A DNA stretch of 47,026 nt from a virus (lineage: Duplodnaviria; Heunggongvirae; Uroviricota; Caudoviricetes), in the IMG/VR virus record IMGVR_UViG_2534681936_000011. One strand, given 5' to 3'. The translations under genes and the position numbers were made by a program. The notes under the pieces were generated by a model that saw only the letters and a list, made by a program, of their open reading frames with translations, was not told the DNA's origin and searched no databases. Below are positions 1-26,340 of this stretch, piece after piece. Position 1 is the first letter of the stretch. Each line of letters starts with the position of its first letter.

Positions 1-120
1 TCAGTGTGGTACATGGATATCGATACCACGGCTAAGTATAAATCTGGTGTTACTACCGTGAAAGACTCGGTACGACTGGATCCGTGGGTGTTTATGTTCT
101 CCGCAGGATATCGTTTTTAA
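1..120 (+). CDS. ompW: 3' end of host outer-membrane protein gene (OmpW-like C-terminus), 5'-partial at window edge
   Basis: Frame 1 reads ...SVWYMDIDTTAKYKSGVTTVKDSVRLDPWVFMFSAGYRF then TAA at 118-120. The C-terminal Phe beta-barrel signature and the flanks match the recalled OmpW C-terminus; the middle differs, as expected if phage DNA rebuilds the gene end at attL. Confidence 0.55.
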   Translation, partial: SVWYMDIDTTAKYKSGVTTVKDSVRLDPWVFMFSAGYRF

Positions 121-1284
121 TTTTCTCTGCAAAACCTCTGCAAAACTGGTCATCAAATGACCAGTTTTTTTCCATTCCTTACCGCGTGCGTCGTTGTAAA
201 TATCGGTCATTTTTTGATTCGAATGGCCTAGCAAAATTTTGGTATCAACCCCCTGCTCTCTGAACAATCGCTCTGATAAAGATCTCTGCTCATGGAAAGA
301 GGGTGGGGTGCCATTAGCACGCCAGTTGTAATCCACAGAATCCCGGGCTTTTTTAAATGCAACGGTTAATGTTGCTGGCTTAACCATCCCGCCGCGCTTA
401 GCTGTCCCTTTCGCGTGATGGTGGTGCAATAGCCACGGACTAAGAACGCAATCGCGGCAGGATGACACCACATCATCTAGGGTGAGATTTAATTTATCGC
501 AACGCAGAGCCAGAGGGATGGCAATCCGGGTTCCTGTTTTTTGCTGTTCGACATGACGATAACCATCCCGGATATCCGAAAATTGCATTTTGCAAATATC
601 TGAAAGGCGCTGGCCTGTCATCAGTGCCAGCAGCATACCGCGCTGTAAAAAGTAACCATCCTTTTCCGCTGCGTTATAAATCATCATCCACTCATCAAAA
701 GTCAGTCGCTGTCTTGATATCCGCACCTGCGGTTTTTTTGCAGATTCTGCAGGGTTAAAGCCTGGCGGGACATCGCCCGTTTGCTGAGCTTCCCGGAAAA
801 CATCGATCAGTACTTTCCTGAAAATTTGTCCCATTCTGTTATGTCCTCTGGCCTTGTACTCTTCCAGTACTGATACCACATCTTTTACGGTTATGGCATC
901 TAACGGTCTGGTGCCAAAACGTTCATCAAATACCCTGAGAGGGGCCGCTTTCTGTTTCAGCGTGTTGAGTTTGATCTCGCCGTTTTCATATCTTTCCTGT
1001 TGAATTTTTCTGTAATTATTCAGAAAAATGGTAACGGTTGATGAACCGCCGGTATCACTAATAATTTTCTCCTGCAGACTGAGCATTTGTTCCATTTGCT
1101 GCCGGGCAAGACGGCTGTTCGCTTCTGCTGCAATAGTTTCTGCCAGTTTCTGGTCAATACTGCCGAGACCGTGATTTTTGCCTGTTATGGGATGCCTGTA
1201 ACGCCAGTAAACTTTGTTATTTCTTTTGTCAAAATACGGAGATAATCCCGGAACATCGGTTTTATATTTTCGCGGGCGCGCCAT
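1..1284 (-). CDS. int: Phage integrase (tyrosine recombinase); C-terminal extension runs antisense through the ompW 3' end
   Basis: 427-aa ORF with lambda-Int-like catalytic region (...LLGHSNQKMTDIYNDARGKEWKK). A tail of about 60 aa past the catalytic Tyr overlaps host sequence, suggesting attL lies inside the 3' end. Confidence 0.85.
   Translation of the reverse strand: MARPRKYKTDVPGLSPYFDKRNNKVYWRYRHPITGKNHGLGSIDQKLAETIAAEANSRLARQQMEQMLSLQEKIISDTGGSSTVTIFLNNYRKIQQERYENGEIKLNTLKQKAAPLRVFDERFGTRPLDAITVKDVVSVLEEYKARGHNRMGQIFRKVLIDVFREAQQTGDVPPGFNPAESAKKPQVRISRQRLTFDEWMMIYNAAEKDGYFLQRGMLLALMTGQRLSDICKMQFSDIRDGYRHVEQQKTGTRIAIPLALRCDKLNLTLDDVVSSCRDCVLSPWLLHHHHAKGTAKRGGMVKPATLTVAFKKARDSVDYNWRANGTPPSFHEQRSLSERLFREQGVDTKILLGHSNQKMTDIYNDARGKEWKKTGHLMTSFAEVLQRKLKTISCGEHKHPRIQSYRVFHGSNTRFILSRGIDIHVPH
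146..171 (+). terminator. Intrinsic terminator after the ompW-like gene
   Basis: 8-bp stem ctggtcat/atgaccag with a 3-nt loop, followed by T7 (165-171). Confidence 0.6.
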
Positions 1285-1574: not shown

Positions 1575-4046
1575 TTAAAAATCAGCCTGATTCGGGAGCA
1601 GTTTTTGCCAGATAGTTGAAACGTATTTTGCCTGGTAACGGGCATCATCCAGCGCATTGTGGCGCTCACCTTCGAATGGGATAGCAGTTCTGGCATCGAA
1701 GTCTACGGCTTTCCCCAGCTCAACGATTGTGCGTACATCGCGATCGTTGCAGTAGCGCCACGGGCAGGGGATACCCTGTCGTTCGTATGAACGGCGCAAA
1801 ATAGTGTTGTCGAAGTTGGCCCCATTACCCCAGACCTGAACAAAAAACTCACCGGAGTTTTCGTCGATAAATTCCCGCAATTGCAGTAGTGCATCATCTA
1901 ACGGGATTTCATCGGTCATAATGGCAGACTGCGCTTCACGTGATTGCTTCAGCCACCATTTAATGACGTCACGATCAATGACTCCGCCAGCAGTATCCAG
2001 ATCGATGGTCTTGCTAAATTCTGGTCCCATATCTCCGGTTTGCGGATCGAAAAATATTGCGCCTATTGAGATAATCGGGGCATCGGGATTTTTTCCCATG
2101 GTTTCAAGGTCGATCATCAGATGAATCCCCGCTCTGCTGGTGGATGTGAGATTATGATGACTGTTCGCCTTAATTAAGGGATCTGACGCCTCGCCAGTTT
2201 CACTATCGCTGGCATGATGCTGATTGCCGCCAGTGTTCTCCTTGTGCTGATGTGCAGTACCTTCCATTTCCTCCGGATCATTTTCCTGAACTTCAGGCTG
2301 ATTCTCTTCATCGAATATTTCCTGGTATGTTGCGTCGCCCATCACCGCGCCACAATCAGGGCAGTTGCCGCCGCCGGTCTGACCGCAGGCGGTGCAGACT
2401 TTTTCCACTTCCTGTTGCGCCACTGGTTCAGGCTGTTTCGTTTCTGGCTCGTTTTGTAACGCATTTGGGCTGTTTTGTTCCGCTTTCTGGTCGTTCTGTT
2501 CCGTTTCTTGCTGGTTCTGGTTCACAGAATCGCGGGTTTCAATCCCCTTCACCCATTTCGGATCATTCGGGTCGCTAATCCCTGCAACAAATTCACCACG
2601 TGATGCGGCGAGCAACTGATTGGCGTCAGGCTGGCTGATATTGGCTGCCTGCATAATTTTCTTTACTTCGTCAGCGGTAACTTTTACCGGTTCTGGTTGT
2701 TCAGAATTTTGTGCGGTATTTGCATTTTGCGGTAAGCCTGTGTATGTGCCATTTTTTCGGGCAAAATATTCTTCTTTTGTGATTTCAGTAGCCCCGGCAG
2801 CCAGCGCCTTATCCAGACCAGAAAGTTTGTTTGCGCGACCGTATTTTTCGCAATCCTTGTCGGTGAAGAGGAAGTAGAACGGCCCCTCACGCTCTACAGA
2901 TGGTTCGACTTCCACTTTGCATTCGGTTTTTTCGTTGTCCGGAATTGCCGTTTCCACTGCATCAGTTTCTGGTACTGGCGACGAGAGAGTGTCAGTTGCG
3001 CTCTGATTTGTTCCTTCATCTTCAAACACGCCCTTTGTAGTCAGGTATTCAGTAATGTATTTGTTCAGTGCCACAGGGTCTTTGTGAATGTCGATCGGAC
3101 GTTCACGGACAAGGCCAAAAATAGTCTGGCGGTCGTAGCGAAGGGCATCAGGCTGTTTGCGCATTGATGCCGAGATACGCTTCCAGTCTTCGCGGTCGTT
3201 GTCGATAACTTCATTTTTTGCCCAGCGATGGATGCTGCCGTCAATGTTTCCGGCATCCACATCACCAGGCCAGAGAGCGTAGGCCAGTTCGTCATCCAGT
3301 GTTTTCCATGTCTGCTTATATTCGCGACGAATGACTGCAGTGACAGGGGGGATTTTTTCTGCTGAGTTTTCAGTGTGCTGTCGGTGGACTCTGGCGCGGG
3401 CGAGATCAACAACAGACGTGTATTTTCCGGTTTCCTTGCGTTCACCTTCGCGACGTTTTTTCCAGATGCGCATTTCTGCCTGAATTTCGGGCCATTTGGC
3501 ACCAGGCTTACATTTATGCTTAACCCACCCGATGGCATGCAGCTTAAGCTCCGGATACATGGCGTTAACTTCTGGCATTTTCATCAACGCTTCAACGATA
3601 TGTCCGTCGAATGTTGCCATGTCTTCCTGCAACAATTCCTGCGCGCTAATCACCATATCAACGGTGATGTTTTCACATGTGTCGAACTTAACCATGACAG
3701 CGTTCTGTACTTCAGGGGCCAGCTTGTCAAAAGCGACGTTCATCGGATCTGATTCAGTCTCAACCGGGACAAAGGAAGCAGCCCCCTCATCCCAGCGGTT
3801 TTCCTGCATATATTCAGCATCCCAGGAATCGAGGGCAGGGCGGGGTATACCGGGTTTATCCTCGCAAACAAGAAATTTATAAGCGCAGTCCTGAGCAGCC
3901 GGATAATGCTCCAGGAATTGCCAGTGAAATTTTGCGCGGGCGCGACGTTCATCACCGGCTTCAATGGCAGTGGCTACAGCGACTGCACCTTCTTCCTTTA
4001 TTGCCTGTTCGTCCGGAATGGCGGCGCAAATAAAGACTTTACTCAT
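1575..4046 (-). CDS. Large phage exonuclease with C-terminal DnaQ-like DEDDh 3'-5' exonuclease domain
   Basis: 823 aa; C-terminal motifs MIDLETMG (Exo I) and HNALDDA (Exo III); central acidic Q/E-rich linker and a CxxC...CxxC zinc-ribbon-like motif (CTACGQTGGGNCPDCG). Sits where Qin ydfE lies; no recT/bet partner nearby. Confidence 0.7.
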   Translation of the reverse strand: MSKVFICAAIPDEQAIKEEGAVAVATAIEAGDERRARAKFHWQFLEHYPAAQDCAYKFLVCEDKPGIPRPALDSWDAEYMQENRWDEGAASFVPVETESDPMNVAFDKLAPEVQNAVMVKFDTCENITVDMVISAQELLQEDMATFDGHIVEALMKMPEVNAMYPELKLHAIGWVKHKCKPGAKWPEIQAEMRIWKKRREGERKETGKYTSVVDLARARVHRQHTENSAEKIPPVTAVIRREYKQTWKTLDDELAYALWPGDVDAGNIDGSIHRWAKNEVIDNDREDWKRISASMRKQPDALRYDRQTIFGLVRERPIDIHKDPVALNKYITEYLTTKGVFEDEGTNQSATDTLSSPVPETDAVETAIPDNEKTECKVEVEPSVEREGPFYFLFTDKDCEKYGRANKLSGLDKALAAGATEITKEEYFARKNGTYTGLPQNANTAQNSEQPEPVKVTADEVKKIMQAANISQPDANQLLAASRGEFVAGISDPNDPKWVKGIETRDSVNQNQQETEQNDQKAEQNSPNALQNEPETKQPEPVAQQEVEKVCTACGQTGGGNCPDCGAVMGDATYQEIFDEENQPEVQENDPEEMEGTAHQHKENTGGNQHHASDSETGEASDPLIKANSHHNLTSTSRAGIHLMIDLETMGKNPDAPIISIGAIFFDPQTGDMGPEFSKTIDLDTAGGVIDRDVIKWWLKQSREAQSAIMTDEIPLDDALLQLREFIDENSGEFFVQVWGNGANFDNTILRRSYERQGIPCPWRYCNDRDVRTIVELGKAVDFDARTAIPFEGERHNALDDARYQAKYVSTIWQKLLPNQADF

Positions 4047-4138
4047 TTTGTTTTACCTCATTACAGATTTAAGGGTGAACAAATCCCTGCCATTGCTGGC
4101 ATATAAGAATGAAATCGGATGTTTATTACGGAACTGTT

Positions 4139-4330
4139 TTAAAGACCTGCCGGGATTTCGTTATTATCCTGGTGAATAACTTTATCGACCGGGTAACAGT
4201 TACCGGGAATTTTCTGTTCGGTTGCTGCAGTCACACACTCCTGCATTGTCCTGTGAACACTGACTGCAATATCAACTGGCTCTCCGGAAACAAGAAAAAC
4301 TGTCAGAACAAGTGCAAATGCTGTATTCAT
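4139..4330 (-). CDS. ydfD: YdfD-like small protein with N-terminal hydrophobic segment
   Basis: 63 aa from an ATG overlapping the upstream stop (ATGA); MNTAFALVLTVFLVSGEP...; length and position match YdfD after dicB. Confidence 0.55.
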   Translation of the reverse strand: MNTAFALVLTVFLVSGEPVDIAVSVHRTMQECVTAATEQKIPGNCYPVDKVIHQDNNEIPAGL

Positions 4331-4515
4331 TGCCAGCATCCTTTTTGTATCGGACGTAAACGGGCCAGCATTGAAAGAATGCATATTTTATTTAATAACT
4401 CCCGTTCGTGTTTTCTCTTGTTAATGGCATCTTCAGTAAATACAGGGTTACTGATAGTGACACCAATTTCAAAACAACCTTCAGACGTATTAACGTTTGG
4501 TAATAACGTTTCCAT
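4327..4515 (-). CDS. dicB: Cell-division inhibitor DicB-like protein
   Basis: 62 aa: METLLPNVNTSEGCFEIGVTISNPVFTEDAINKRKHERELLNKICILSMLARLRPIQKGCWQ, near-identical to the recalled DicB sequence; immediately downstream of the DicF-like element. Confidence 0.7.
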   Translation of the reverse strand: METLLPNVNTSEGCFEIGVTISNPVFTEDAINKRKHERELLNKICILSMLARLRPIQKGCWQ

Positions 4516-4684
4516 TATCGCGTCCTCAACAATGAATTTTGTGATGCGGTGCCTGGTGCCTCCAGGTGACGTTAACCAGTTAACAATTAACGCCGGATAC
4601 AGTGAATCCCCCCATAACACTGTTTTTAGCTTTAACTGTTCCGCGTGCGCTTAGCCGCATTCACTGCATCACAAAATTCACTTT

Positions 4685-4740
4685 AAAAAGGGCGGACATC
4701 AGTTCATGGGCAAACAGATGCCGCCAAACGTCACCAGAAA
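4685..4740 (-). ncRNA. dicF: DicF-like small regulatory RNA
   Basis: Minus strand reads TTTCTGGTGACGTTTGGCGGCATCTGTTTGCCCATGAACTGATGTCCGCCCTTTTT: conserved DicF 5' seed, then a GGCGG...CCGCC hairpin and T5. Lies between the upstream ORFs and dicB as in the dicB operon. Confidence 0.7.
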
Positions 4741-5073
4741 ATTGATAACAGAGGGCGTTGCAGCGGGGTTGTCACTTAAGCGTATGGTCAACCTGACAAC
4801 CCGGTGTCCTCAACGGGGAAGGAATAACCCCGCCATACTTACCGCTGCGCCATTTCGCGGAGTGCCACAACCGGAAGCGCACGGTCGACGAAAATTTAAC
4901 GACAGGCTATCTATGAACCAGCAACCTCGCCGTGCGCTTTCGCGTTATGCTCTGACTTTTCAGAGAAATATCCTTTCAGTAAACTGTCAGTGCCGGATGT
5001 TCACCCGTGTCCGGCGCACGCACTCCACTTCACCCGTGGAGAACTCCTTAATTACCAACCCTCAGGAGGGTGA

Positions 5074-5307
5074 ATGTTAAAATCAACTCTTATTGCTAAA
5101 TGCCTTTATCAAAATCGCATGGTAAGCAGCATTTCAATAGGCGAGTCTGCAGTTAAAAGTATTTTCGAAGAGTACTTTCCCGGGCATGATTTTAATAAAT
5201 GGAATACCAAATTACCGCCAGCAGTTTCAACGCGTATTCTGAAAGCAACCGAAAGAGCAAGTACAATTCGCGTTAACTATTTCATTAAAGATTTGTGGGA
5301 TCTTTGA
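5074..5307 (+). CDS. Hypothetical 77-aa protein, opposite in orientation to the early-left operon
   Basis: ATG with strong SD (AGGAGGgtgaATG); AT-rich coding sequence; 3' end overlaps the convergent 135-aa ORF by 23 bp. Confidence 0.4.
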   Translation: MLKSTLIAKCLYQNRMVSSISIGESAVKSIFEEYFPGHDFNKWNTKLPPAVSTRILKATERASTIRVNYFIKDLWDL

Positions 5308-5692
5308 TATCCACAGAGCCTAAAGTATGTGCATATGGATGTGCTATTATGCGCCCTCGCAGATTTGCATCATTTTCTAAATTCACTGAACGAAACAGGG
5401 CATCAACAAGGCTCTGTACAATGCAAAGGCAATCGAAGACTGTCGCCGTTTCTGTTTTGATTGATGAAAGAACATGGCCATTCACGCAAACAGAAATTAC
5501 CCGTTTATTAACATCGCTTTCCTGCTTTTGATTATCAGAACCATATAGCCCAGAAAAAGCATTGCGCACATTACGAACCATATTATCGATGGTTTCTTTT
5601 TCTGCGGTACTAAGGTCAAGAGTAGCCAGTTGTGAACGAACTATATTCGATGCCATTTCCTGTAATGGCGTTGGTAAATCTTTAAATTCCAT
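5285..5692 (-). CDS. Hypothetical early-left protein (135 aa)
   Basis: ORF with GAGG SD 8 nt upstream; no recognisable family. Confidence 0.5.
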   Translation of the reverse strand: MEFKDLPTPLQEMASNIVRSQLATLDLSTAEKETIDNMVRNVRNAFSGLYGSDNQKQESDVNKRVISVCVNGHVLSSIKTETATVFDCLCIVQSLVDALFRSVNLENDANLRGRIIAHPYAHTLGSVDIKDPTNL

Positions 5693-5714
5693 TATTAGCC
5701 TCGTTGGTTAGCTA

Positions 5715-5933
5715 TTAACGTGGGTATGTAATCATTCTGGCAATGCTTAATGCCGCTGCTTTTTCCAGATTGGTGATATCCTGCTCCAGAGCGGACAGAT
5801 TTTCAGCCTGCTTAGCCCTGGCTTCATTGGCCCATTTCAGGTCCTGCACCGCCTTAATTTTCTGGTGCATCCACTCATAAAGTTCATCATCGGTATAGTC
5901 TGGCGCGATGATGACGGGGTCTCGTTTCTGCAT
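5715..5933 (-). CDS. Hypothetical early-left protein (72 aa, coiled-coil-like)
   Basis: ORF in operon context between dicA and dicF; length matches the YdfC slot. Confidence 0.45.
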   Translation of the reverse strand: MQKRDPVIIAPDYTDDELYEWMHQKIKAVQDLKWANEARAKQAENLSALEQDITNLEKAAALSIARMITYPR

Positions 5934-6005
5934 GTCGGCTCCTTGTGGTTAGCGTTGCCTGCTTTTTAACCACATCAGGCGAGGTGGTATCCTCTGAGGG
6001 GTCTG

Positions 6006-6362
6006 TTACTCGAGAGGAAATTGGTTATGAATACAATCAAGTTTTCTTGCCCAGAATGTGGTGGCTAAGTCTTTGACACATCCTTTAAGCCGCAGGGCTC
6101 TGACAGTTTCGCGGGAGCCATCTGCAAAAATTGTGGTCACCTTGTAACTGAAGATGAGTCCTCGCAGTTCGATGACGAAATCGTTGACAATATCTTCGGT
6201 GCACTCACCAGAGACTTTCTGAAGTAAAGGCGCATACCGCTTAGTTACCGCTCTGATAACTCTTACCTGTCCGGCAATGGCGCTGATATCAATATAAAGC
6301 GCCATCGCTGTTTCTTTGCTGATCCCTGGACGCCTTCCATTCTGATGTTTGACTTCGCCCAC
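6006..6362 (-). CDS. Hypothetical early-left protein (up to 118 aa; start uncertain)
   Basis: First ORF downstream of the repressor on the same strand. Confidence 0.4.
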   Translation of the reverse strand: MGEVKHQNGRRPGISKETAMALYIDISAIAGQVRVIRAVTKRYAPLLQKVSGECTEDIVNDFVIELRGLIFSYKVTTIFADGSRETVRALRLKGCVKDLATTFWARKLDCIHNQFPLE

Positions 6363-6569
6363 TGAGAAATCCTCTGCTTCCCCTTAACGCCGGGTAGCGG
6401 AACTGTTTGCTGAGAACACCGTGCGGTGTCTTGATGAGTAGAATTTAGAATAGCCTAAGAGTTATGGTCAAGCTTTTTGTGTAGAAAAACCTAAGCTTCT
6501 TGATGTAAAAAACACAAGTATTTGAAAGTTTGTGCTTTTTATTACAGAGAGTTGCGAAAAAAAGGGGGG

Positions 6570-6977
6570 TTATTTATTTGCGCTTCTTTTGCGAGCTTTG
6601 AGTAGTTCTTCAAAAAGTTTGTTGAAATTCTCAACTCGAGCACGCATCTCTGACAACAGAGCCTTTTGCTCTGACTCAGGCAGTGCGTCGAACAGTTGAA
6701 GCAACTCTTTTTGATCTTCTGTCAGATTGACTGGCTGATTATCTGGGATCGGTTCGCCTGGTTGCTTATCTTCATCTCCAAAAAGAAGCCAAGTCGGCGA
6801 GCACTGAAGCGCCTGGCTCAGTGCGAATAATCTCTTCCCCGCTGGCTGTGTTTCATCTCTTTCCCATTGAGAAATTGTTACGTGAGCCACTTTGACCAGC
6901 TTACCTAATGCGGCCTGAGACAGTTTTAATTTTTTTCGCCTGTATAAGAGGCGAGCACCGAAGGTTTCGTTTTTCAT
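6570..6977 (-). CDS. dicA: DicA-like HTH (XRE-family) prophage repressor
   Basis: 135 aa; MKNETFGARLLYRRKKLKLSQAALGKLVKVAHVTISQWERDE... HTH; length and C-terminus (FNKLFEELLKARKR) match recalled DicA; divergent from a cro-like gene. Confidence 0.85.
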   Translation of the reverse strand: MKNETFGARLLYRRKKLKLSQAALGKLVKVAHVTISQWERDETQPAGKRLFALSQALQCSPTWLLFGDEDKQPGEPIPDNQPVNLTEDQKELLQLFDALPESEQKALLSEMRARVENFNKLFEELLKARKRSANK

Positions 6978-7053
6978 ATTAGGTAATTCTAATTTTTCTT
7001 GACTTAGGTTTCTCTACGATCTAGTTTCCTTAGGAAAATCTAAGGGGTTCGAT
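6978..7053. promoter_or_regulatory. Divergent promoter/operator region between dicA and dicC
   Basis: 76-bp intergenic region with palindromic operator candidates: TTAGGTAATTCTAA (6979-6992) and CCTTAGGAAAATCTAAGG (7028-7045), plus a related element between them. Confidence 0.5.
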
Positions 7054-7281
7054 ATGTTGAAAATTGATGCTATAGCGTTTTTTGGCAGCAAAACAAAGCT
7101 TGCCAATGTCGCAGGAGTTAGGCTGGCAAGCGTTGCTGCATGGGGGGAACTGGTTCCTGAAGGTCGCGCGATGCGCCTGCAAGAGGCATCCGGCGGGGAA
7201 CTTCAGTACGACCCCAAAGTTTATGACGAATATCGTAAGGCAAAGCGGGCGGGGCGGTTGAACAATGAAAATCACCACTGA
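7054..7281 (+). CDS. dicC: DicC-like (Cro-like) regulator
   Basis: 75 aa; MLKIDAIAFFGSKTKLANVAGVRLASVAAWGELVPEGRAM...; divergent from dicA. Confidence 0.75.
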   Translation: MLKIDAIAFFGSKTKLANVAGVRLASVAAWGELVPEGRAMRLQEASGGELQYDPKVYDEYRKAKRAGRLNNENHH

Positions 7282-7816
7282 ACAGGTTTGTGAGGCTCTG
7301 GATACCTGGGTATGCCGACCAGGAATGACACAGGAGCAGGCGACGATATTAATCACGGAAGCATTCTGGGCTCTGAAAGAACGCCCGAACATCGATGTTC
7401 AACGCGTCACGTTTAATGATGGCGAGGTTGATCAACGGGCGCTGGGCGTTAACCGGGTGAAGATATTCGAACGCTGGAAAGCTATCGACACCAGAGATAA
7501 GCGTGACAAATTCACGGCGCTGATTCCGGCAATTATGGAGGCTATCCGGATCAGCGATTTCAGATTGTATTGTGAAATTACTGACGGAAAAAGCATTACG
7601 TACATGATCGCCGGGTTAAACAAAGAATATGGCGATGTGGTGGAGTCCGGGCTGCTTTTTGCGGATCCAGTTGTTGTGGAACGTGAGACTGACGAGCTTA
7701 TAGAAAAAGCTATTGCTTTCAAGCACGCGTATCGTCAGCAATACCAATATTACTTTGCAGATAAACAAATGTCTGCCAGGGGTTCGTATGAGTATCGATG
7801 CACTACGATGGGCTAA
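7265..7816 (+). CDS. Hypothetical early-right protein (183 aa), family uncertain
   Basis: ORF overlapping the dicC stop; second gene of the early-right operon. Confidence 0.5.
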   Translation: MKITTEQVCEALDTWVCRPGMTQEQATILITEAFWALKERPNIDVQRVTFNDGEVDQRALGVNRVKIFERWKAIDTRDKRDKFTALIPAIMEAIRISDFRLYCEITDGKSITYMIAGLNKEYGDVVESGLLFADPVVVERETDELIEKAIAFKHAYRQQYQYYFADKQMSARGSYEYRCTTMG

Positions 7817-8828
7817 AAAGGTGAAAACCGGCAGTTCATCCAGTAAGTCAGTATTGACCTGGCTTGCTGATATGTGCGGTGCCGATTTGTGTGCATACCC
7901 GTCTGTATCTGCACTGGCAGAAGTAACGGAACTGAACAAAAAGACTGTGCAGGACAGCTTACGACACCTGATGGAGATTGGGTTAATTGTTGATACCGGT
8001 GAGAGAAAAGGCAGAACAAAGCAAATTGTGGTGTACCGACTTATCGGTGTAGAAGAAAGTGTTGCCGAGCCTGAATACACCCAAAAACGGGAGTCTTTAA
8101 AGGTGGGTAAAATTGGTGCTGTTAATAAAAACAGTACCGAAAATGGTTATGTTTCAGCACAAAACAGACCCAAAAACAGAACTCTTAGCTGCATGGAAAA
8201 TAACCAAAGACACCCAAATTTTCCATCAAAGACACCCAAAAACGGATCACGGAACCCAAAGGAACCCAAAGATCTAAACCCCACACATAACGCACGCGAG
8301 AGTGCTCCGACCAGTGAGCAGGAAGTTTTGTCGTTACAGGCAGCCCCCCCTGTATTCCTGTATGGCCTGAGCGAACCCATCGGAAAATTCCCGATGAGCG
8401 ATAGCTGGTATCCGTCACGGGATTTTCGACGACGGGCTGCGTTGTGGGGGATGGCTTTGCCGGAGACAGAATTTACACCTGCTGAACTTGCCGCCTTCCG
8501 GGACTACTGGGCAGCGGAGGGGAAAGTGTTTACGCAGATTCAGTGGGAGCAGAAATTCGCCCGTCACGTAAATCACGTCAGGGCGCAGGTTAAACCAGTC
8601 AGCAAAGGGGTAAACCATGCAGCAGCACCAGGTGGCACCGCATCACGGGCAGTTCAGGAAATTCGGGCAGCACGTGAGCAGTGGGAACGTGAAAACGGAT
8701 TTATCAGCGACGGAAACGGCCTGGAAGCTGTGGGAACTCATGGGGGTGGTTTATTCGAACCGCTGGATCCAGAAGAACGGGGCCGCACCTTCGAAGCTCT
8801 GGATTGCACAGATTGGCGCGATGACTGA
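7788..8828 (+). CDS. Replication initiation protein (O-like, N-terminal winged HTH)
   Basis: ATG at 7788 with AGGGG SD; N-terminus MSIDALRWAKKV...LAEVTELNKKTVQDSLRHLMEIGLIVDTGE is HTH-like; lies upstream of a P-like gene. Confidence 0.6.
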   Translation: MSIDALRWAKKVKTGSSSSKSVLTWLADMCGADLCAYPSVSALAEVTELNKKTVQDSLRHLMEIGLIVDTGERKGRTKQIVVYRLIGVEESVAEPEYTQKRESLKVGKIGAVNKNSTENGYVSAQNRPKNRTLSCMENNQRHPNFPSKTPKNGSRNPKEPKDLNPTHNARESAPTSEQEVLSLQAAPPVFLYGLSEPIGKFPMSDSWYPSRDFRRRAALWGMALPETEFTPAELAAFRDYWAAEGKVFTQIQWEQKFARHVNHVRAQVKPVSKGVNHAAAPGGTASRAVQEIRAAREQWERENGFISDGNGLEAVGTHGGGLFEPLDPEERGRTFEALDCTDWRDD

Positions 8829-9282
8829 GCAGCAAATCCGGCAGGTCTGCCGCCAGTGCATGGACCGCTGCCGGGCGGGTGAAACATGGCCTCCGGACCT
8901 GGCTGAGTTTGTGGCACTGATTTCGAAAAGCGGAGCCAATCCATTCGGTCTGACGGTGGATGCTGTGATGGAGGAGTACCGCCGCTGGCGCAATGAGTCC
9001 TGGCGATACGACGGAAGTGATAAGTACCCGTGGTCTCAGCCTGTGCTGTATCACATTTGCCTCGAGATGCGTTCAAAGGGGATTGAGCGCCAGATGACCG
9101 AAGGGGAATTAAAACGGCTTGCAGAACGGCAACTGACGAAATGGGCAAAGCATGTTAGTAACGGCCTGAGCGTTCCGCCAGTCCGGCGACAACTGGCGGC
9201 CCCCAAACGCCCGTCGGGGCCAACGCCAATTGAGTTGCTGAAACAGGAATATGAACGCCGGAAAGCGGCTGGTTTTGTTTGA
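8821..9282 (+). CDS. Replication protein P-like helicase loader (C-terminal domain homolog)
   Basis: Start overlaps the upstream stop (ATGACTGA). YPWSQPVLYHICLEM...ELKRLAERQLTKWAKHVSNGLSVPPV aligns with recalled lambda P (YPWKSNAHYWLV...ELRRKAADELVHMTARINRGEAIPEPV). Confidence 0.65.
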   Translation: MTEQQIRQVCRQCMDRCRAGETWPPDLAEFVALISKSGANPFGLTVDAVMEEYRRWRNESWRYDGSDKYPWSQPVLYHICLEMRSKGIERQMTEGELKRLAERQLTKWAKHVSNGLSVPPVRRQLAAPKRPSGPTPIELLKQEYERRKAAGFV

Positions 9283-10211: not shown

Positions 10212-10909
10212 CGCGATAACGGTCAAAAATTATGGCGCTGACACTTTTGTGCCACTGGAGATGACTGTACCTAAGTTCAGGGGAGAAGAACACGTCCGGT
10301 GGGATGGTCGGGCCAGATTTAAAGGGCAGGTCATGGCTCCAGCCTGTACGCTGGCAATGGAGGCTGCCTGGCGGGAAATTGATATGGGAACCACGCCACT
10401 CAGGGATTTACTGCCGGTCCAGAGAATAAATTCCTGTTACGGTTACACCACTGTGATCTTGCAAGTGCAGGAAAGTAGGTCTACACGGTAACGCGAGTGC
10501 GTGTAACTTTTGATGTCATTCCCGTAGAAACACCGGACAAATTTTCGCTGACAGGTCATGCAGAAGGTATAAATCTGCAGATTATGGACAATTACGGATA
10601 TCCGGCAAGAGCCGGAAAAAGCATGCCGCCTCTAATTCTCAGTGGAAGATGGACTTGATTATACTCATTGCATTGTCAGAAATAGTTATCCATTAAAGGC
10701 TGGCTATTCCAAACAGGATGTTGATTACAAAAATGTAATCAACATGTAAGGTTTATACTCTTCAATATGCGTATAATTTTCCTTATTTTGTTGACTTTAA
10801 ATAACAAGCTATGCACGAGGTAAAGTCGGATAAGTTTATCTGGATGTAATATATATTATTTGTAGTGTTTATAACTTTATTTCATGATAACCAATAAAAG
10901 GAGTTTTTT

Positions 10910-11668
10910 ATGAGGAACATAATGGCAGGTTTTTTAATATTCCTGTCTTCTGCTGCTTATGCTGATATCAATCTGTATGGTCCTGGTGGCCCGCATACAG
11001 CCTTGCTTGATGCAGCCAAACTTTATGCCGAAAAAACAGGTATTATAGTGAACGTTCATTACGGCCCACAGAACAAATGGAATGAAGATGCCAAAAAAAA
11101 TGCAGATATCTTGTTTGGCGCATCAGAACAATCTGCTCTGGCTATCATTCGGGACCATAAAGACAGCTTCAGTGAAAAAGATATTCAGCCTCTTTATCTG
11201 CGAAAAAGTATTTTACTGGTAAAGAAAGGTAATCCTAAAAATATCCGGAGTATTGACGACCTGACCAGACCTGGGATTGGCGTAATTGTTAATGATGGTG
11301 GTGGTACCAGTAATACATCAGGCACTGGCGTCTGGGAAGATATTGCCGGACGTAAAGGGAATATAGAAACTGTCGCCGCAATCCGAAAAAATATTATTTT
11401 ATATGCGCCCAATAGCGGAACTGCACGTAAGGCTCTTGAGAATCAGCCTGGAGCAGATGTCTGGATAACCTGGGCTGACTGGGCAGCCAGTAATCCAGAA
11501 ATTGGTGATGTCGTGGAAATAGCGCCAGACTACGTGATATGGCGTGATATGAACATTACAGTACGTCAGGATGCAAATGATGAAACCCGTCGATTTGCAG
11601 AATGGCTACAAACCGATGAAGCGGCGCCTGCATTCAAAAAATATGGCTGGACCAGGAAAGGCACTTGA
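10910..11668 (+). CDS. Orphan periplasmic solute-binding protein (ModA-like fold) with signal peptide
   Basis: 252 aa; AAGGAG SD; signal peptide MAGFLIFLSSAAYA; C-terminus ...AAPAFKKYGWTRKGT patterns like the ModA-type end (...AAEIFKRYGFTIK); AT-rich flanks; no transporter partners. Confidence 0.55.
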   Translation: MRNIMAGFLIFLSSAAYADINLYGPGGPHTALLDAAKLYAEKTGIIVNVHYGPQNKWNEDAKKNADILFGASEQSALAIIRDHKDSFSEKDIQPLYLRKSILLVKKGNPKNIRSIDDLTRPGIGVIVNDGGGTSNTSGTGVWEDIAGRKGNIETVAAIRKNIILYAPNSGTARKALENQPGADVWITWADWAASNPEIGDVVEIAPDYVIWRDMNITVRQDANDETRRFAEWLQTDEAAPAFKKYGWTRKGT

Positions 11669-11811: not shown

Positions 11812-12003
11812 GCGAAAACGGTTTGCTGTAACGGCAGAGTTAAGTAGGATTGCTGCGGGTGCTTGAGGCTATCTGCCTCGGGCATGAACACCAACGGCAG
11901 ATAGATAAAAGCCCCACCCGACTATAAATCGAAGTGAGGCCCCTATATGCTCGTCACATATAGATTGCCTCTTACGGACCGAAAGGTCAAGGAGAAGCAG
12001 GCT

Positions 12004-12159
12004 ATGAAGCAGCAAAAGGCGATGTTAATCGCCCTGATCGTCATCTGTTTAACCGTCATAGTGACGGCACTGGTAACGAGGAAAGACCTCTGCGAGGTAC
12101 GAATCCGAACCGGCCAGACGGAGGTCGCTGTCTTCACAGCTTACGAACCTGAGGAGTAA
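12004..12159 (+). CDS. hok: Hok/Gef-family type I toxin
   Basis: 51 aa MKQQKAMLIALIVICLTVIVTALVTRKDLCEVRIRTGQTEVAVFTAYEPEE, a canonical Hok sequence; an in-frame upstream extension (from 11947) occupies the mok position. Confidence 0.8.
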   Translation: MKQQKAMLIALIVICLTVIVTALVTRKDLCEVRIRTGQTEVAVFTAYEPEE

Positions 12160-16299: not shown

Positions 16300-16613
16300 T
16301 TTTTTTGTTTGCTGTTTATTAAAAACACTTCTGCATGGTGAATCCCCCTGTGCGGTGGGGCAATCAGCAAGAAGGAATATGGGGTAATCGCGGATTCAGG
16401 TGCTGATACTGAATTCACCGGGAGGCACCCGGCACCATGCTTTGCCACAAAAGTGTTATTTCTGTTTTTCTCAAACTATCATCGTTATCCCTTTATTTTC
16501 GGCTGCGCATGGCGCGGCCTTTTTTTTACGACCAGCCACTGGCAGATGGTCATCCTGTGATTTGATTCCGCTTCCGGCTTTTTAACTCTGTTCCTCTACA
16601 CGGGAGAAATTCG

Positions 16614-18464: not shown

Positions 18465-18910
18465 TAAAAAAAGCCAGCGACTGACCTGAAAAAGAAGACG
18501 CTGGCTAAAAGGCCTTATATGTTTGTAGAGACTTATTTTTCACAGACAGCAATGATGCCTGTCAATATATTATCAATATGCGGATTGTTTCAGTTACAGA
18601 TGCCTTATTAAGGAAAAAAACAGCCAGCACTGACTTTCGGTGGAGAGGTGCTGGCTCAAAAGGATAGATGTACTTCACATGTTGCTTCTATATGGCAGTA
18701 CATTTTCTGACAGACAGTGACGGATGTTGTCAAGATATTGTGTCATTTATAACCTGAATCAGGGGAGGCCGGAATGTTATCTGGCATTTTTAGCAGAGCC
18801 TGAATGCCATAATCACGGCTCCCGGCGTTGGCCGTCAGTGGGTGACACTGGCGGCTTTTTGTTTTTCTTTACTTTCATTTTCTGTCGGCGGTGACGGAGA
18901 CATACATCAG

Positions 18911-19117
18911 ATGGAAAAAATCACAACAGGTGTGTCATACACCACGTCAGCGGTGGGGACGGGATACTGGTTACTGCAGCTGCTGGACAAAGTCTCTCCG
19001 TCCCAGTGGGTGGCAATAGGTGTGCTGGGAAGTCTGCTGTTTGGCCTGCTGACGTATCTGACAAATCTTTATTTCAAGATTAAAGAAGATAAGCGTAAGG
19101 CTGCGAGAGGTGAATAA
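18911..19117 (+). CDS. S: Class II holin (phage 21 S-like pinholin)
   Basis: 68 aa [68 protein letters not shown], close to recalled S21. Confidence 0.8.
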
Positions 19118-19614
19118 TGTCGCCGTCATTACGCAAGGCTGTTGCAGCTGCTATTGGTGGTGGGGCTGTTGCCATAGCGTCTGTGCTCATCACTGGTCCA
19201 GGTGGTAACGATGGTCTGGAAGGTGTCAGCTACATACCATACAAAGATATCGTTGGCGTATGGACTGTATGTCACGGACACACCGGAAAAGACATCATGC
19301 CCGGTAAAACGTATACCGAAGCAGAATGCAAAGCCCTCCTGAATAAAGACCTTGCCACGGTCGCCAGACAAATTAACCCGTACATCAACGTCGATATACC
19401 GGAAACAACGCGCGGCGCTCTTTACTCGTTCGTTTACAACGTGGGCGCTGGCAATTTCAGAACATCGACGCTTCTTCGCAAAATAAACCAGGGCGATATC
19501 AAAGGCGCATGTGATCAGCTACGGCGCTGGACATACGCTGGCGGTAAGCAATGGAAAGGGCTGATGACTCGCCGCGAGATTGAGCGTGAAGTCTGTTTGT
19601 GGGGGCAACAATGA
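19117..19614 (+). CDS. R: SAR endolysin (lysozyme with N-terminal signal-anchor-release segment)
   Basis: Start overlaps the holin stop (TAATG); hydrophobic Gly/Ala-rich N-terminus [20 protein letters not shown], then a lysozyme-like domain. Confidence 0.85.
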
Positions 19615-20078
19615 GCAGGGTAACCGTTATTATCTCCGCTCTGGTTATCTGCATTATCGCCTGCCTGTCATGGGCTGTTAATCATTACCGCGATAACGCC
19701 ATTACCTACAAAGCGCAACGCGATAAAAAAGCCAGTGAGCTGAAGCTGGCGAACGTGACAATTACTGATATGCAGGTACGCCAGCGTGATGTCGCTGCAC
19801 TTGATGCCAGATACTCGAGGGAATTAGCCGATGCGAGAGCTGAAAATGAAACTCTGCGTGCTGATGTTGCCGCTGGTCGTAAGCGCCTGCGCATCAACGC
19901 CAACTGTCCAGGCTCCTTGCGTAAAGCCCCCATCACCTCCGGCGTGGGTAATGCAACCGGTCCCCGACTGGCAGAAGCCGCTGAACGGGATTATTTCATC
20001 CTCAGAGAACGGCTGATGGCAATGCAGAAGCAACTGGAAGGAGCACAGGAATATATCCGTACCCAGTGTATACCGTGA
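19611..20078 (+). CDS. Rz: Rz-like i-spanin
   Basis: ATG overlaps the endolysin stop (ATGA); N-terminal TM segment then coiled-coil; contains an embedded +1-frame lipoprotein gene. Confidence 0.8.
19831..20016 (+). CDS. Rz1: Rz1-like o-spanin lipoprotein, embedded in Rz
   Basis: [20 protein letters not shown]... with lipobox VVSAC and Pro-rich mature part, closely matching recalled lambda Rz1. Confidence 0.75.
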
Positions 20079-20543
20079 TGTTTTGTTATGAAGATGTTAC
20101 TGGTAACATTAAGGTAATTTAACAAAGAGTCAGTTCCGGACTTTATAGTGTGCTCAGTTCATGGCCAAAAACGATTTCTGTGATAAATATTTTGAATATT
20201 ATTTACAGGTAAATGGAGTGGGGCGCATGGATAGAAATATTACAATAGAGTATGAAGTATATGCCCGTATTGTATGGGCAGAGAAGGCAAAAACACGGTA
20301 AATCCGTGTGTTGCCATGATACCTGATTGGCAGAATAGTTGTTTGGTTTTGAGTATATAGTCAGCGTTTTTTGTTCAGTAATTGCCCCCTCAAAAAATAA
20401 TAAAATAAGGTGATTATTTTTGTTTATTATTTAGTTTTTTTTGTGTGTTATTTTATTGTTTTTGCGTGGTTTGTTTTTTATTGTTATTTCATTAAGGGAA
20501 GGTAAATTCAGGATGGCAGTCTGTAGATAATCGGAGGTCACTT

Positions 20544-20858
20544 ATGCTACATGATCACGTGGCAGAATGTCTGGAGAAAAAAGGACTGTACCGGAGAGCA
20601 GCTGAACGATGGGCAAAAGTGATGGTACAGCTAAGTGATGACCAGAAAAGAAAAGTGGCGGCACAGAAACGAGCAGAGTGTTTGCGTAAGGCGCGCCGGA
20701 CTCCGGTTTCACCGGTGAACCTGACCGAAATAAAACAAGCGGTCAACAGACTACATTCTGAGTTGGGAATGGGATTTGAAGAGCGGCGGGTATTCCGACG
20801 ATATAAAGGGACAGGAGAACAGAATACGTCCGGAAACGCGCGGTCAAAAAAATGCTAA
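20544..20858 (+). CDS. pch: PerC-family transcriptional activator (Pch-like)
   Basis: 104 aa; GGAGG SD; LEKKGLYRRAAERW matches the PerC family motif (LEATGLWRRAAARW); preceded by about 450 bp of T-rich, AT-rich DNA. Confidence 0.6.
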   Translation: MLHDHVAECLEKKGLYRRAAERWAKVMVQLSDDQKRKVAAQKRAECLRKARRTPVSPVNLTEIKQAVNRLHSELGMGFEERRVFRRYKGTGEQNTSGNARSKKC

Positions 20859-20939
20859 AAAATATCTGAGAGAGTTATTGCCTGTTACCATAAGAAAAAG
20901 CGACTTTAGTGGTCGCTTTTTGTGTCATATATAAGTCGT

Positions 20940-21164
20940 TTAAGTAAACCTGTCTGAACAGGTGCTCTGGTCGTGTTTGTCTTTGTTGGGTACAAATTGA
21001 GAATATTTTTCATTAATTAATCTTCTTCTGCAGGCTTCAATAACCCACGCTGAAAAATTACCTGAACCTTTCTGGTCAAGAGCGATGTTAATTTGTTCAA
21101 TCATCTGGTTTGGAAATCGGATGTTGCGGGTTGTTGTTCTGCGGGTCCGGTTTTTCGGTGACAT
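20940..21164 (-). CDS. Small putative ribbon-helix-helix DNA-binding protein
   Basis: 74-aa ORF; RNIRFPNQMIEQINIALDQKG...SAWVIEACRRRL suggests an Arc/CopG-like fold. Confidence 0.35.
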   Translation of the reverse strand: MSPKNRTRRTTTRNIRFPNQMIEQINIALDQKGSGNFSAWVIEACRRRLINEKYSQFVPNKDKHDQSTCSDRFT

Positions 21165-21205
21165 TTTCTTTCCTCTGGTGACAAGCTATATGGCGAGGAT
21201 TTTAC

Positions 21206-21736
21206 ATGGCCGTGCTTCGTACGTTACCGGGCAGAATCAAAACTCTGAATACCCGGCGGGTGAATGTCCTGAAGGGTGAACAGCGTCGGGTCAGTGGCAG
21301 TGCCCGGGTTTCCCTCAAGCGTCGTATCTGGCTGAGGGATGCCGGACAGTGCTGTCTCTGTGGGCGTGTGGTTGACCTTTGTGACAGTGAACTCGATCAC
21401 CGCATTGCACTTCAGTTCGGTGGTGGTAATGAGGAGACGAATCTCTGGACGCTCTGTACCGAATGCCATCGCCAGAAGTCAGTCAGTGAAACGGCGAGTG
21501 GTATGCCGGACCCGACGCTGCCGGAGGTCATGGCAGGGCAGACGATATCATCGGACTGTGACCCGCCCCGGGGGGGGGATCATCCGGCGAAAAAAACGAT
21601 CGCCCCGGACACCGCCCCCCGTCTCATGCAGAGAAAAAATTCCTGTTTCAGGCCAGTTAACATGTTAACTGGCTGCCCGGGCATTTTTTCGGTTTTTATC
21701 TTTATTATTCAGTTTGTTGTGCGAAAAAAATGTTAA
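21206..21736 (+). CDS. HNH endonuclease (terminase-associated), with low-complexity C-terminal extension
   Basis: Motifs CCLCGRVVD...ELDHRIALQFGGGNEETNLWTLCTECHRQKS; lies upstream of the terminase small subunit as in HK97-like cos phages; the last 70 aa or so read through GC-rich sequence and may not be native. Confidence 0.7.
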   Translation: MAVLRTLPGRIKTLNTRRVNVLKGEQRRVSGSARVSLKRRIWLRDAGQCCLCGRVVDLCDSELDHRIALQFGGGNEETNLWTLCTECHRQKSVSETASGMPDPTLPEVMAGQTISSDCDPPRGGDHPAKKTIAPDTAPRLMQRKNSCFRPVNMLTGCPGIFSVFIFIIQFVVRKKC

Positions 21737-26118: not shown

Positions 26119-26340
26119 ATGGCAAAAATCCGATATCTGCAGGGTACACATGATGCCCGGCCCGGGGATATCCGGGATGTCGCACAGCCGTGTGCGGAGG
26201 TGCTGGTTCGCCTGGGAAAGGCGGAGTACATCACAGCGCGACGTCCGGCGGGTCAGAAAAAGAAACATGATGCGGAGCATAGCGAATGTGGAACCTTTTG
26301 CGACGAACCCGAAAAAACCAGAAATCAGGACGTGATGTAA
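26119..26340 (+). CDS. Small hypothetical ORF between capsid and portal genes
   Basis: 73-aa ORF overlapping the portal start; weak RBS. Confidence 0.25.
   Translation: MAKIRYLQGTHDARPGDIRDVAQPCAEVLVRLGKAEYITARRPAGQKKKHDAEHSECGTFCDEPEKTRNQDVM

Follow-up and report, generated by a model that had tools for sequence, protein, structure and literature searches.

The open reading frame positioned after the lysis cassette of an E. coli O55:H7 prophage is very probably a functional pchA-type gene of PchABC group 1, carried as a moron unit with three likely layers of expression control. The window, i.e. the whole stretch of 47,026 nucleotides which was analysed, represents one complete lambdoid prophage adjoining ompW. 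By its sequence the gene is pchA itself, which is already known, and it is neither a new member nor a variant of the family. It differs from the copy in O157:H7 Sakai only in the host prophage (at ompW, with nleH), in its native orientation and in its single-copy status in the closest genomes.

Identification of the pchA gene

The gene is located as follows.

20544..20858, plus strand: pch coding sequence, ATG start, 104 aa; pchA allele, PchABC group of PerC-family regulators

An earlier note, made from the DNA letters, had described a 104-aa product with the PerC signature LE..GL.RRAA.RW. The open reading frame was found at this position on the plus strand, and the signature is present as CLEKKGLYRRAAERWA at residues 9-24 of the product. 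The profile search for the PerC family proposed in the same note gave a full length match. Pfam PF06069 (PerC) scored 149.3 bits against a cut-off of 22.6 (E 3.8e-44), with residues 1-89 of the pch product aligned on positions 1-89 of the 90 profile positions. PHROG families labelled 'transcriptional activator' were further matches. UniRef lists this very protein as 'PchABC family transcriptional regulator', and it occurs on at least 1000 contigs.

The protein is the same as PchA (ECs_1091) of prophage Sp4 in O157:H7 Sakai at 104 of 104 residues, and the coding DNA is the same as Sakai pchA at 315 of 315 nucleotides. The terminator and the neighbouring Rz gene are also shared with the Sp4 locus. 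The differences between pchA, pchB and pchC are confined to nucleotides 16, 172 and 183 (PMC5931665). As the coding DNA in the window has the pchA bases at these three positions, it represents the pchA allele, unlike PchB and PchC of O157:H7, which otherwise share with it the same 315-bp gene, the ler function and the prophage slot.

Pch proteins possess no recognisable DNA-binding domain. The 104-aa product is probably all-helical. The AlphaFold2 single-sequence model composed of four helices and a disordered tail was of low confidence (pLDDT 51, pTM 0.33), and it was too poor to be used for a fold search. A sequence search of the PDB with the pch protein found no relative at E up to 1.

Prophage context and distribution of the pch module

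The prophage begins with the integrase (1..1284), followed by xis, exo, dicB, repressor/cro, replication genes, paa, hok/sok and Q. The middle part contains two tRNAs, a SASA esterase, the lysis genes, pch, a convergent ylcI-like gene, HNH and terminase. Head and tail genes, an ISEc31 insertion, a lom-like gene, tail fibres, an integrase remnant and nleH form the end. In DEC5A the prophage is decayed, with a frameshifted portal, J cut short by ISEc31 and a partial HNH. The features which define the surroundings of pch are given below.

18842..20078, plus strand: lysis cassette (holin, endolysin, Rz/Rz1), from Pfam and PHROG matches; co-directional with pch and directly upstream of it
18842-19117, plus strand: P21-type holin (Pfam, 111 bits)
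19117-19614, plus strand: phage lysozyme, the endolysin (Pfam, 156 bits)
19599-20078, plus strand: Rz (Pfam, 158 bits)
19831-20016, plus strand: Rz1-type lipoprotein ORF embedded in Rz (from the ORF list)
20940..21164, minus strand: gene of the YlcI/YnfO family (DUF3950; PF13132, 70.6 bits; NF041551), convergent, forming the right-hand module boundary
46115..47026, plus strand: nleH, T3SS effector kinase (NCBIfam NF041316 equivalog, 581 bits, cut-off 450)

The holin, lysozyme and Rz profiles matched immediately upstream of pch, in agreement with the position after the lysis cassette claimed before. The gene is followed by terminase downstream, and the integrase and nleH are on the same prophage. 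The nleH gene of the window is annotated as nleH1-2 in DEC5A. Its presence indicates that the host is a strain of the attaching-and-effacing type; O55:H7 is presumably a lineage of atypical EPEC which carries LEE and from which O157:H7 arose. The pch genes on lambdoid prophages are typically accompanied by T3SS effector genes (PMC3378721).

An 821-bp region with the spacer and the gene is 100% identical in E. coli O55:H7 DEC5A and FDAARGOS_946, and it is the sole copy in each. When at least 90% identity to this region was taken as the cut-off for presence, 673 of the 5426 complete E. coli genomes carried the spacer-plus-gene module, and the median copy number was 3. O157:H7 carries 3-4 copies of the module compared to one in DEC5A and FDAARGOS_946. 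Among the matches listed, the serotypes were O157:H7, O26:H11, O111:H8, O103:H2, O121, O145:H28, O45:H2 and O55:H7. The spacer alone was found at 1878 places and the spacer with the gene at 1880 places in the same 688 records, showing that spacer and pch are inherited as one unit. Only two unannotated fragments in the phage database matched the module, hence it is known essentially from prophages in genomes. With their sole group-1 pch copy, the closest genomes would offer a less complex genetic background than O157:H7, which has three. For annotation, the O55:H7 ompW prophage can now be described as having a native-orientation pchA allele together with nleH and a DicF-like sRNA.

Terminator and probable moron organization

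The unit is closed on its right side by a shared terminator.

20895..20921, both strands: bidirectional intrinsic terminator AAAAAGCGAC-N7-GTCGCTTTTT, common to pch (plus) and the ylcI-like gene (minus)

The terminator is a perfect 10-nt inverted repeat situated between A5 and T5. Its RNA is predicted to fold in an 11-bp stem, and the 77-nt segment around it gave -17.3 kcal/mol with a z of -2.3. It is 100% conserved in Sakai and in strain A25. The consensus terminator scan missed this hairpin, perhaps because the A/T arms lengthen the stem, so that no T-run follows.

The moron concept, known from the work of Hendrix and colleagues, covers lambdoid accessory genes like bor and lom, which are of deviant composition, possess their own terminator and lie between conserved modules. 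The bor genes of DLP12 and lambda sit in the post-Rz slot, as does pch. However, bor is on the opposite strand and encodes a surface protein, whereas pch runs in the direction of the late operon and encodes a regulator of host-island genes. The pch unit would be composed of the 465-bp AT-rich upstream region, the gene and the bidirectional terminator, forming a moron between the lysis cassette and the terminase genes. The inter-module slot, the deviant composition and the strong terminator are present, and a promoter is predicted.

Function of pch at LEE and comparison with related regulators

The pch genes are the route of lambdoid prophages into the control of LEE type III secretion and are relevant to the virulence of EHEC and EPEC. 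Their role at LEE was established between 2004 and 2016, and the copy in the window is identical to the one which was studied. PchA activates the LEE1 promoter by displacing H-NS, and this activation by Pch is observed only under repression by H-NS, StpA, Hha and YdgT (PMC4764244). With Pch, less H-NS is bound at LEE1 in vivo, and Pch keeps H-NS out of reconstituted complexes; the genomic Pch sites are of the most AT-rich class, with ~450 bp on average (PMC4764244). In K-12, PchA raised the expression of ler::lacZ from 1,577 to 9,087 Miller units, ~6-fold (PMC5931665). As related in PMC4456613, Iyoda and Watanabe (2004) found pchABC to be required for full LEE expression and adherence. The link to LEE control suggested in the earlier note is firmer than its reader could know, because the protein is 100% identical to Sakai PchA, for which activation of LEE1/ler is published; NleH is also encoded in the window.

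For the identical protein the literature shows the following course. Pch binds DNA of very high AT content, both at effector genes and at the LEE1 (ler) promoter, and the bound Pch loosens the nucleoprotein complex of H-NS, StpA and Hha there. Ler is then made, and together Ler and Pch activate the type III secretion island as well as effectors encoded on prophages. Ler, the LEE1-encoded anti-silencer of the H-NS family, resembles Pch in relieving H-NS silencing at AT-rich virulence promoters, and both co-occupy many sites (PMC4764244). Unlike Pch, Ler possesses an H-NS-like DNA-binding domain, and the two show no sequence relationship.

PerC of EPEC E2348/69 (pMAR2), the founding member of the family, shows 47% identity and 70% positives with the pch product over 87 residues (E 1e-27), and both share the LE..G(L/F).RRAA.RW motif. 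Like Pch, it activates the LEE1 promoter (PMC4332760). PerC has 89 aa and is plasmid-borne as the third gene of perABC, right after perB, while Pch has 104 aa and is monocistronic on prophages. PerC is dispensable for LEE expression in many conditions, whereas Pch is essential in EHEC (PMC4764244).

Several other PerC-family members of E. coli act on ler weakly or not at all; in the assay used for PchA, PchD left it unchanged and PchE changed it less than 2-fold (PMC5931665). Plasmids of bacteria outside the A/E group, among them Salmonella, Klebsiella and Pantoea, are a further widespread location of the family. PchD, PchE and YfdN of K-12 are found on prophages or islands and are set apart by their descriptions as shorter or diverged proteins, which show little or no ler effect, with PchE repressing curli and flagella (PMC5931665, PMC6265319). 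That the gene in the window is an inactive or differently acting homologue of this kind, without LEE activation, is nevertheless scarcely credible: the protein is PchA in sequence and in length, PchA was active in those assays, and the coding DNA has the pchA allele at all three distinguishing positions.

Composition and conservation of the upstream spacer

The region between the Rz gene and pch contains a T-rich core.

20079..20543, plus strand: spacer from the Rz stop to the pch ATG, 465 bp, 33.1% GC, 38% T
20367..20490, plus strand: T-rich core with six T/A homopolymer tracts, GC 23%, T 53%; fastest-evolving part of the module

The GC content of the spacer compares to 51.7% in the whole window, and only 1.1% of the 465-bp windows are as low. 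It shows 98.3% identity to the upstream region of Sakai pchA, with 8 of 465 positions different. The left 300 bp of the spacer are only moderately AT-rich (60-67% AT), while over 20324-20536 the AT content stays at or above 70% without break in 100-bp windows. The most T-rich stretch of the window is a part of ~130 bp (20370-20500) with 22.9% GC and 53.4% T. Its fraction of T or A was reached by 0.05% of the 131-bp windows, and the T maximum of the whole window starts at 20363. The AT content of the core is 77% compared to 48% in the window. The tracts in the core are T6 at 20367, A6 at 20392, T5 at 20417, T8 at 20435, T5 at 20459 and T6 at 20474, and degenerate direct repeats of a T-rich 27-mer were also found in it. 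Of the ~450 bp of very AT-rich and T-tract-rich DNA described in the earlier note, the length holds (465 bp), but the composition holds only for the promoter-proximal third.

The copies from the window, Sakai, strain A25, a phage-derived fragment and a plasmid paralogue were aligned. Strain A25 represents the most diverged chromosomal copy, with 87% identity to the window in the spacer. In this alignment the T-rich core shows 70-79% identity with indels against strain A25 and keeps its T-richness, while the Rz end and the region of orf46, a small open reading frame in the spacer, show 92-100%. The 5' half of the pch gene shows 87-93% identity and everything downstream 97-100%. The last 50 nt before the pch ATG are kept, with the blocks TATTGTT, GGTAAAT, TCTGTAGATAA and GGAGGT. 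The plasmid paralogue, on pDEC5B-4 near an nleG gene, encodes a protein of 78.6% identity. Its upstream DNA has a different sequence, again AT- and T-rich with 35% GC, which argues that the core retains composition and not sequence.

On the minus strand, the segment 20280-20392 has a fold z of -3.5 and is flanked by promoter-like and terminator-like sites. Its long-range helix is lost in other copies.

Possible silencing by H-NS

Judging from base composition, the chances that the pch promoter is silenced by H-NS are about even. The stretch 20324-20536 is as AT-rich as would be expected of an H-NS-silenced promoter. The 10-mer TCGATAAATT is reportedly a high-affinity nucleation motif of H-NS, described by Lang and co-workers in 2007. 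In the whole window it gave 35 matches compared to 38.5 expected. Within 20079-20543 the sole match has 2 mismatches (20116-20125, minus strand), and none was found in the T-rich core. H-NS can bind without this 10-mer, so its absence weakens the silencing idea without excluding it. In the accessible part of the literature no report of H-NS occupancy at a pch upstream region was found; the supplements of the Sakai ChIP-chip study contained no pch-specific H-NS data, and PMC4720273 no pch data.

Candidate promoters and probable transcriptional control

Two candidate promoters were found in the spacer.

20481..20508, plus strand: candidate proximal promoter TTGTTA-N16-TAAATT, 8/12 consensus, read by eye; leader of ~28 nt
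20311..20339, plus strand: candidate distal promoter TTGCCA-N17-AATAGT, 9/12 consensus, sole plus strand scan hit

In the first layer of control, a promoter belonging to pch itself would lie in the promoter-proximal third of the spacer, answering to host regulators and plausibly damped by H-NS, as its composition suggests. The published inputs of pch are LrhA, Lrp/butyrate/LeuO, NtrC/sigma-S and ppGpp (PMC4456613, PMC13012123, PMC10714755). The proximal candidate lies under the scan threshold, and its hexamers are within the conserved blocks TATTGTT and GGTAAAT of the four chromosomal/phage copies. The distal candidate is kept in these four copies and not in the plasmid paralogue. The consensus promoter and terminator scan gave a hit count no higher than chance.

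It is possible, though rather unlikely, that the core is transcribed from the distal candidate and acts as RNA, in a U-rich 5' leader of ~200 nt with a role, for instance, in Hfq/sRNA binding or stability, instead of serving as promoter DNA for bound proteins. The distal candidate is the only plus strand consensus hit and is conserved in the four copies, the leader from it (~197 nt) is U-rich and unstructured (z +1.38), which suits Hfq, and pchA is under known sRNA control (PMC7769764, PMC7873438). Against this, the hit is no better than chance, and the published action of DicF is on an SD/anti-SD pair near or inside the coding region and not on a long leader (PMC7769764). The conserved blocks closer to the ATG are equally compatible with a proximal promoter, and a sub-threshold Rfam scan of 19900-21300 on both strands found no family at E up to 1.

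In addition to its own promoter, pch may receive read-through from the Q-dependent late promoter upon prophage derepression, as a third layer. This is suggested because pch and the late operon point the same way and the scan found no terminator-like site on the plus strand between Rz and pch. In the window the block keeps its native orientation and is read in the same direction as Q, the lysis genes and terminase, whereas the lysis-pchA block of Sakai Sp4 lies inverted relative to Q and terminase, flanked by IS629 and ISEc8. This inversion would uncouple Sakai pchA from late transcription. In strain PA20, pchC went up 8-fold after SOS induction while pchA did not (PMC5931665). We infer that this contrast fits late read-through, assuming that PA20 shares the Sakai Sp4 inversion.

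The same arrangement of pch with the lysis genes, with no plus strand terminator between them, would also suit a reading in which pch is mainly a passenger of the Q-antiterminated late transcript and the spacer is low-complexity filler at a module junction instead of an H-NS-silenced promoter. The rise of group-1 pch transcripts at 12 h under an SOS-inducing antibiotic (PMC5931665) points in this direction. For the spacer as filler, the core is the fastest-evolving part with indels, as in slippage-prone and weakly constrained DNA, and the H-NS motif shows no enrichment. However, pch is expressed and required in uninduced lysogens in DMEM (PMC4764244, PMC4090186), and LrhA, Lrp/butyrate and NtrC all affect its transcription, a response for which a dedicated promoter is needed. 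The T-richness is found in every diverged copy, including the plasmid paralogue with its otherwise different sequence, and the 50 nt preceding the ATG are strongly conserved. Considering these points, the passenger and filler reading is improbable, and a dedicated promoter with added late read-through is preferred.

Probable translational control and a DicF-like RNA

Besides the dedicated promoter and the late read-through, a layer at the level of translation is predicted from the following features.

20533..20537, plus strand: Shine-Dalgarno GGAGG, 6 nt upstream of the pch ATG, unchanged among five diverged copies
20633..20643, plus strand: predicted anti-SD segment AAGUGAUGACC in the coding sequence, best partner of SD/start (P ~0.6)
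4690..4739, minus strand: DicF-like sRNA gene (Rfam RF00039, 43.5 bits, gathering score 48, E 1.4e-7), just upstream of dicB

By partition function, most of the Shine-Dalgarno would be paired in the mRNA, with P of 0.8-0.95 for G20533, G20534 and G20537. An alternative anti-SD partner is predicted at 20699-20706 (P ~0.3). When oxygen is low, the sRNA DicF opens an SD/anti-SD structure in pchA mRNA (PMC7769764, PMC7873438), and the pairing predicted in the window appears to agree in kind with the published structure (PMC7769764). In this second layer the SD/anti-SD hairpin would gate the translation of pch, and DicF would open the hairpin as described in the literature.

The DicF-like RNA matches the model over its full length. 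Its 5' single-stranded region UUCUGGUGACGUUUGGCGG and the terminator stem are conserved, and the centre is off consensus. The score is under the gathering threshold, and the RNA is therefore named DicF-like and not DicF. An exact-pattern search with a K-12 DicF sequence found no match within 3 mismatches; the variant was found by the covariance model. The pairing of the DicF-like RNA with pch mRNA in RNAduplex was not significantly above that of shuffled sRNA (fraction 0.08), with two alternative sites.

In a bolder and quite unlikely scheme, the core, with its constant composition and freely changing sequence, would be a silencing platform for H-NS nucleation. Given the high AT content of the genomic Pch sites, Pch would bind its own upstream region, displace H-NS there and so activate its own gene, and the DicF-like RNA from the same prophage would unlock translation. 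If true, host virulence would be under a two-key switch contained entirely in this element.

A small open reading frame in the spacer

The left part of the spacer contains the small open reading frame orf46.

20161..20301, plus strand: orf46, 46 codons, within the spacer (phrog_2157, E 2.3e-37)

It is annotated as hypothetical protein in many records and is without PGAP annotation in DEC5A. No Shine-Dalgarno was seen before it. Among the substitutions in orf46, 2 of 3 are non-synonymous. It shows 97-100% identity even in the most diverged copy; this conservation does not decide whether orf46 is coding, because the flanking non-coding DNA and Rz also show 92-100% identity, which fits mosaic recombination. 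As a lesser variant, either orf46 or the structured minus-strand segment 20280-20392 could be a real product modulating pch.

Putative DicF-like RNA and pchA in the same prophage

A match to the DicF family and the dicB gene were located in the same region of the prophage, together with a weaker match to another small RNA family.

4690-4739, minus strand: DicF-like small RNA gene (Rfam RF00039)
about 4326-4514, minus strand: dicB
4496-4701, minus strand: STnc100-like match, sub-threshold (32 bits)

The RF00039 match scores 43.5 bits (E 1.4e-7), below the gathering score of 48; the 5' region and the terminator are retained while the central loop differs. According to published work, translation of pchA is activated by DicF (PMC7769764, PMC7873438). 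On the basis of this sub-threshold match, the activator RNA and its target pchA would thus be linked within one prophage. The STnc100-like match overlaps the start of dicB and the DNA upstream of it.

Features of the pch spacer

The 465-bp spacer between the Rz stop and the pch start codon (20079-20543) contains an open reading frame on the plus strand and a segment of about 100 nt on the minus strand, within 20280-20392, which is flanked by a promoter-like site and a terminator-like hairpin.

20161-20301, plus strand: 46-codon ORF, MAKNDFCDKYFEYY... (phrog_2157, E 2e-37)
20426-20397, minus strand: promoter-like site
20309-20293, minus strand: terminator-like hairpin with T-run

The 46-codon ORF travels with pch in essentially every copy, and its region shows 97-100% identity even against the most diverged copy. 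Three substitutions were seen in it, two of them non-synonymous. No Shine-Dalgarno sequence was seen ahead of the ORF, and it is absent from the PGAP annotation. The fold of the minus-strand segment is better than that of all 200 shuffled sequences (z -3.5), and its closing helix is not kept in strain A25, which carries the most diverged chromosomal pch copy, and in the ECO95 fragment compared alongside it. No Rfam family was found for this segment, which might possibly represent an antisense or small transcript. The best 300-bp window of the spacer has 31.0% GC and is less extreme than the three AT-richest windows of the prophage.

44308-44607: 22.7% GC, near the right end, beside a degraded second integrase
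10649-10948: 29.0% GC, just upstream of paa
46706-47005: 30.0% GC, within nleH

pch loci in Sakai Sp4 and pDEC5B-4

In Sakai prophage Sp4 (NC_002695.2, locus L003, 32131-39827), the holin-endolysin-Rz-pchA block is reversed with respect to Q, the tRNAs and the terminase, and the inverted block is bordered by IS629 and ISEc8. This inversion would uncouple pchA from late-operon read-through. In strain PA20, SOS induction was reported for pchC but not for pchA (PMC5931665), and an Sp4-type inversion may explain this missing response of pchA. A 104-aa Pch paralogue with 78.6% identity is encoded at 2501-2815 of locus L006, which comes from pDEC5B-4 (NZ_CP038392.1), an IncF plasmid of O55:H7 DEC5B, with an nleG effector gene nearby. 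The DNA upstream of this paralogue is of other sequence and is again T-rich (35% GC).

Virulence cargo, prophage integrity and other small RNA matches

The prophage carries virulence cargo, nleH and Paa, along with pchA, and a toxin-antitoxin locus is situated immediately downstream of paa.

46115-47026, plus strand: nleH, complete gene for a type III effector kinase (NCBIfam equivalog, 581 bits), at the right end of the prophage
10910-11668, plus strand: Paa, AcfC-family adhesin in the DEC5A annotation, early region; no NCBIfam match above cut-off
11857-12158, plus strand: hok/sok type I toxin-antitoxin (Rfam sok, 103.9 bits; hokD in the DEC5A annotation)

The prophage looks defective from the annotation of the identical sequence in O55:H7 strain DEC5A, in which the portal gene is frameshifted (structural genes 26286-39601), an ISEc31 insertion (39594-40807) cuts gene J (host specificity) short, and the HNH gene listed at 21206 is labelled partial. 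Two further small RNA matches were found.

16304-16476, plus strand: STnc100 family (100.8 bits), in the late-promoter leader region, with the Q/tRNA region on one side and the SASA esterase gene on the other
40653-40775, minus strand: isrC Hfq-binding small RNA, full-length match (150 bits), in the tail region adjoining the ISEc31 insertion and a lom-like gene
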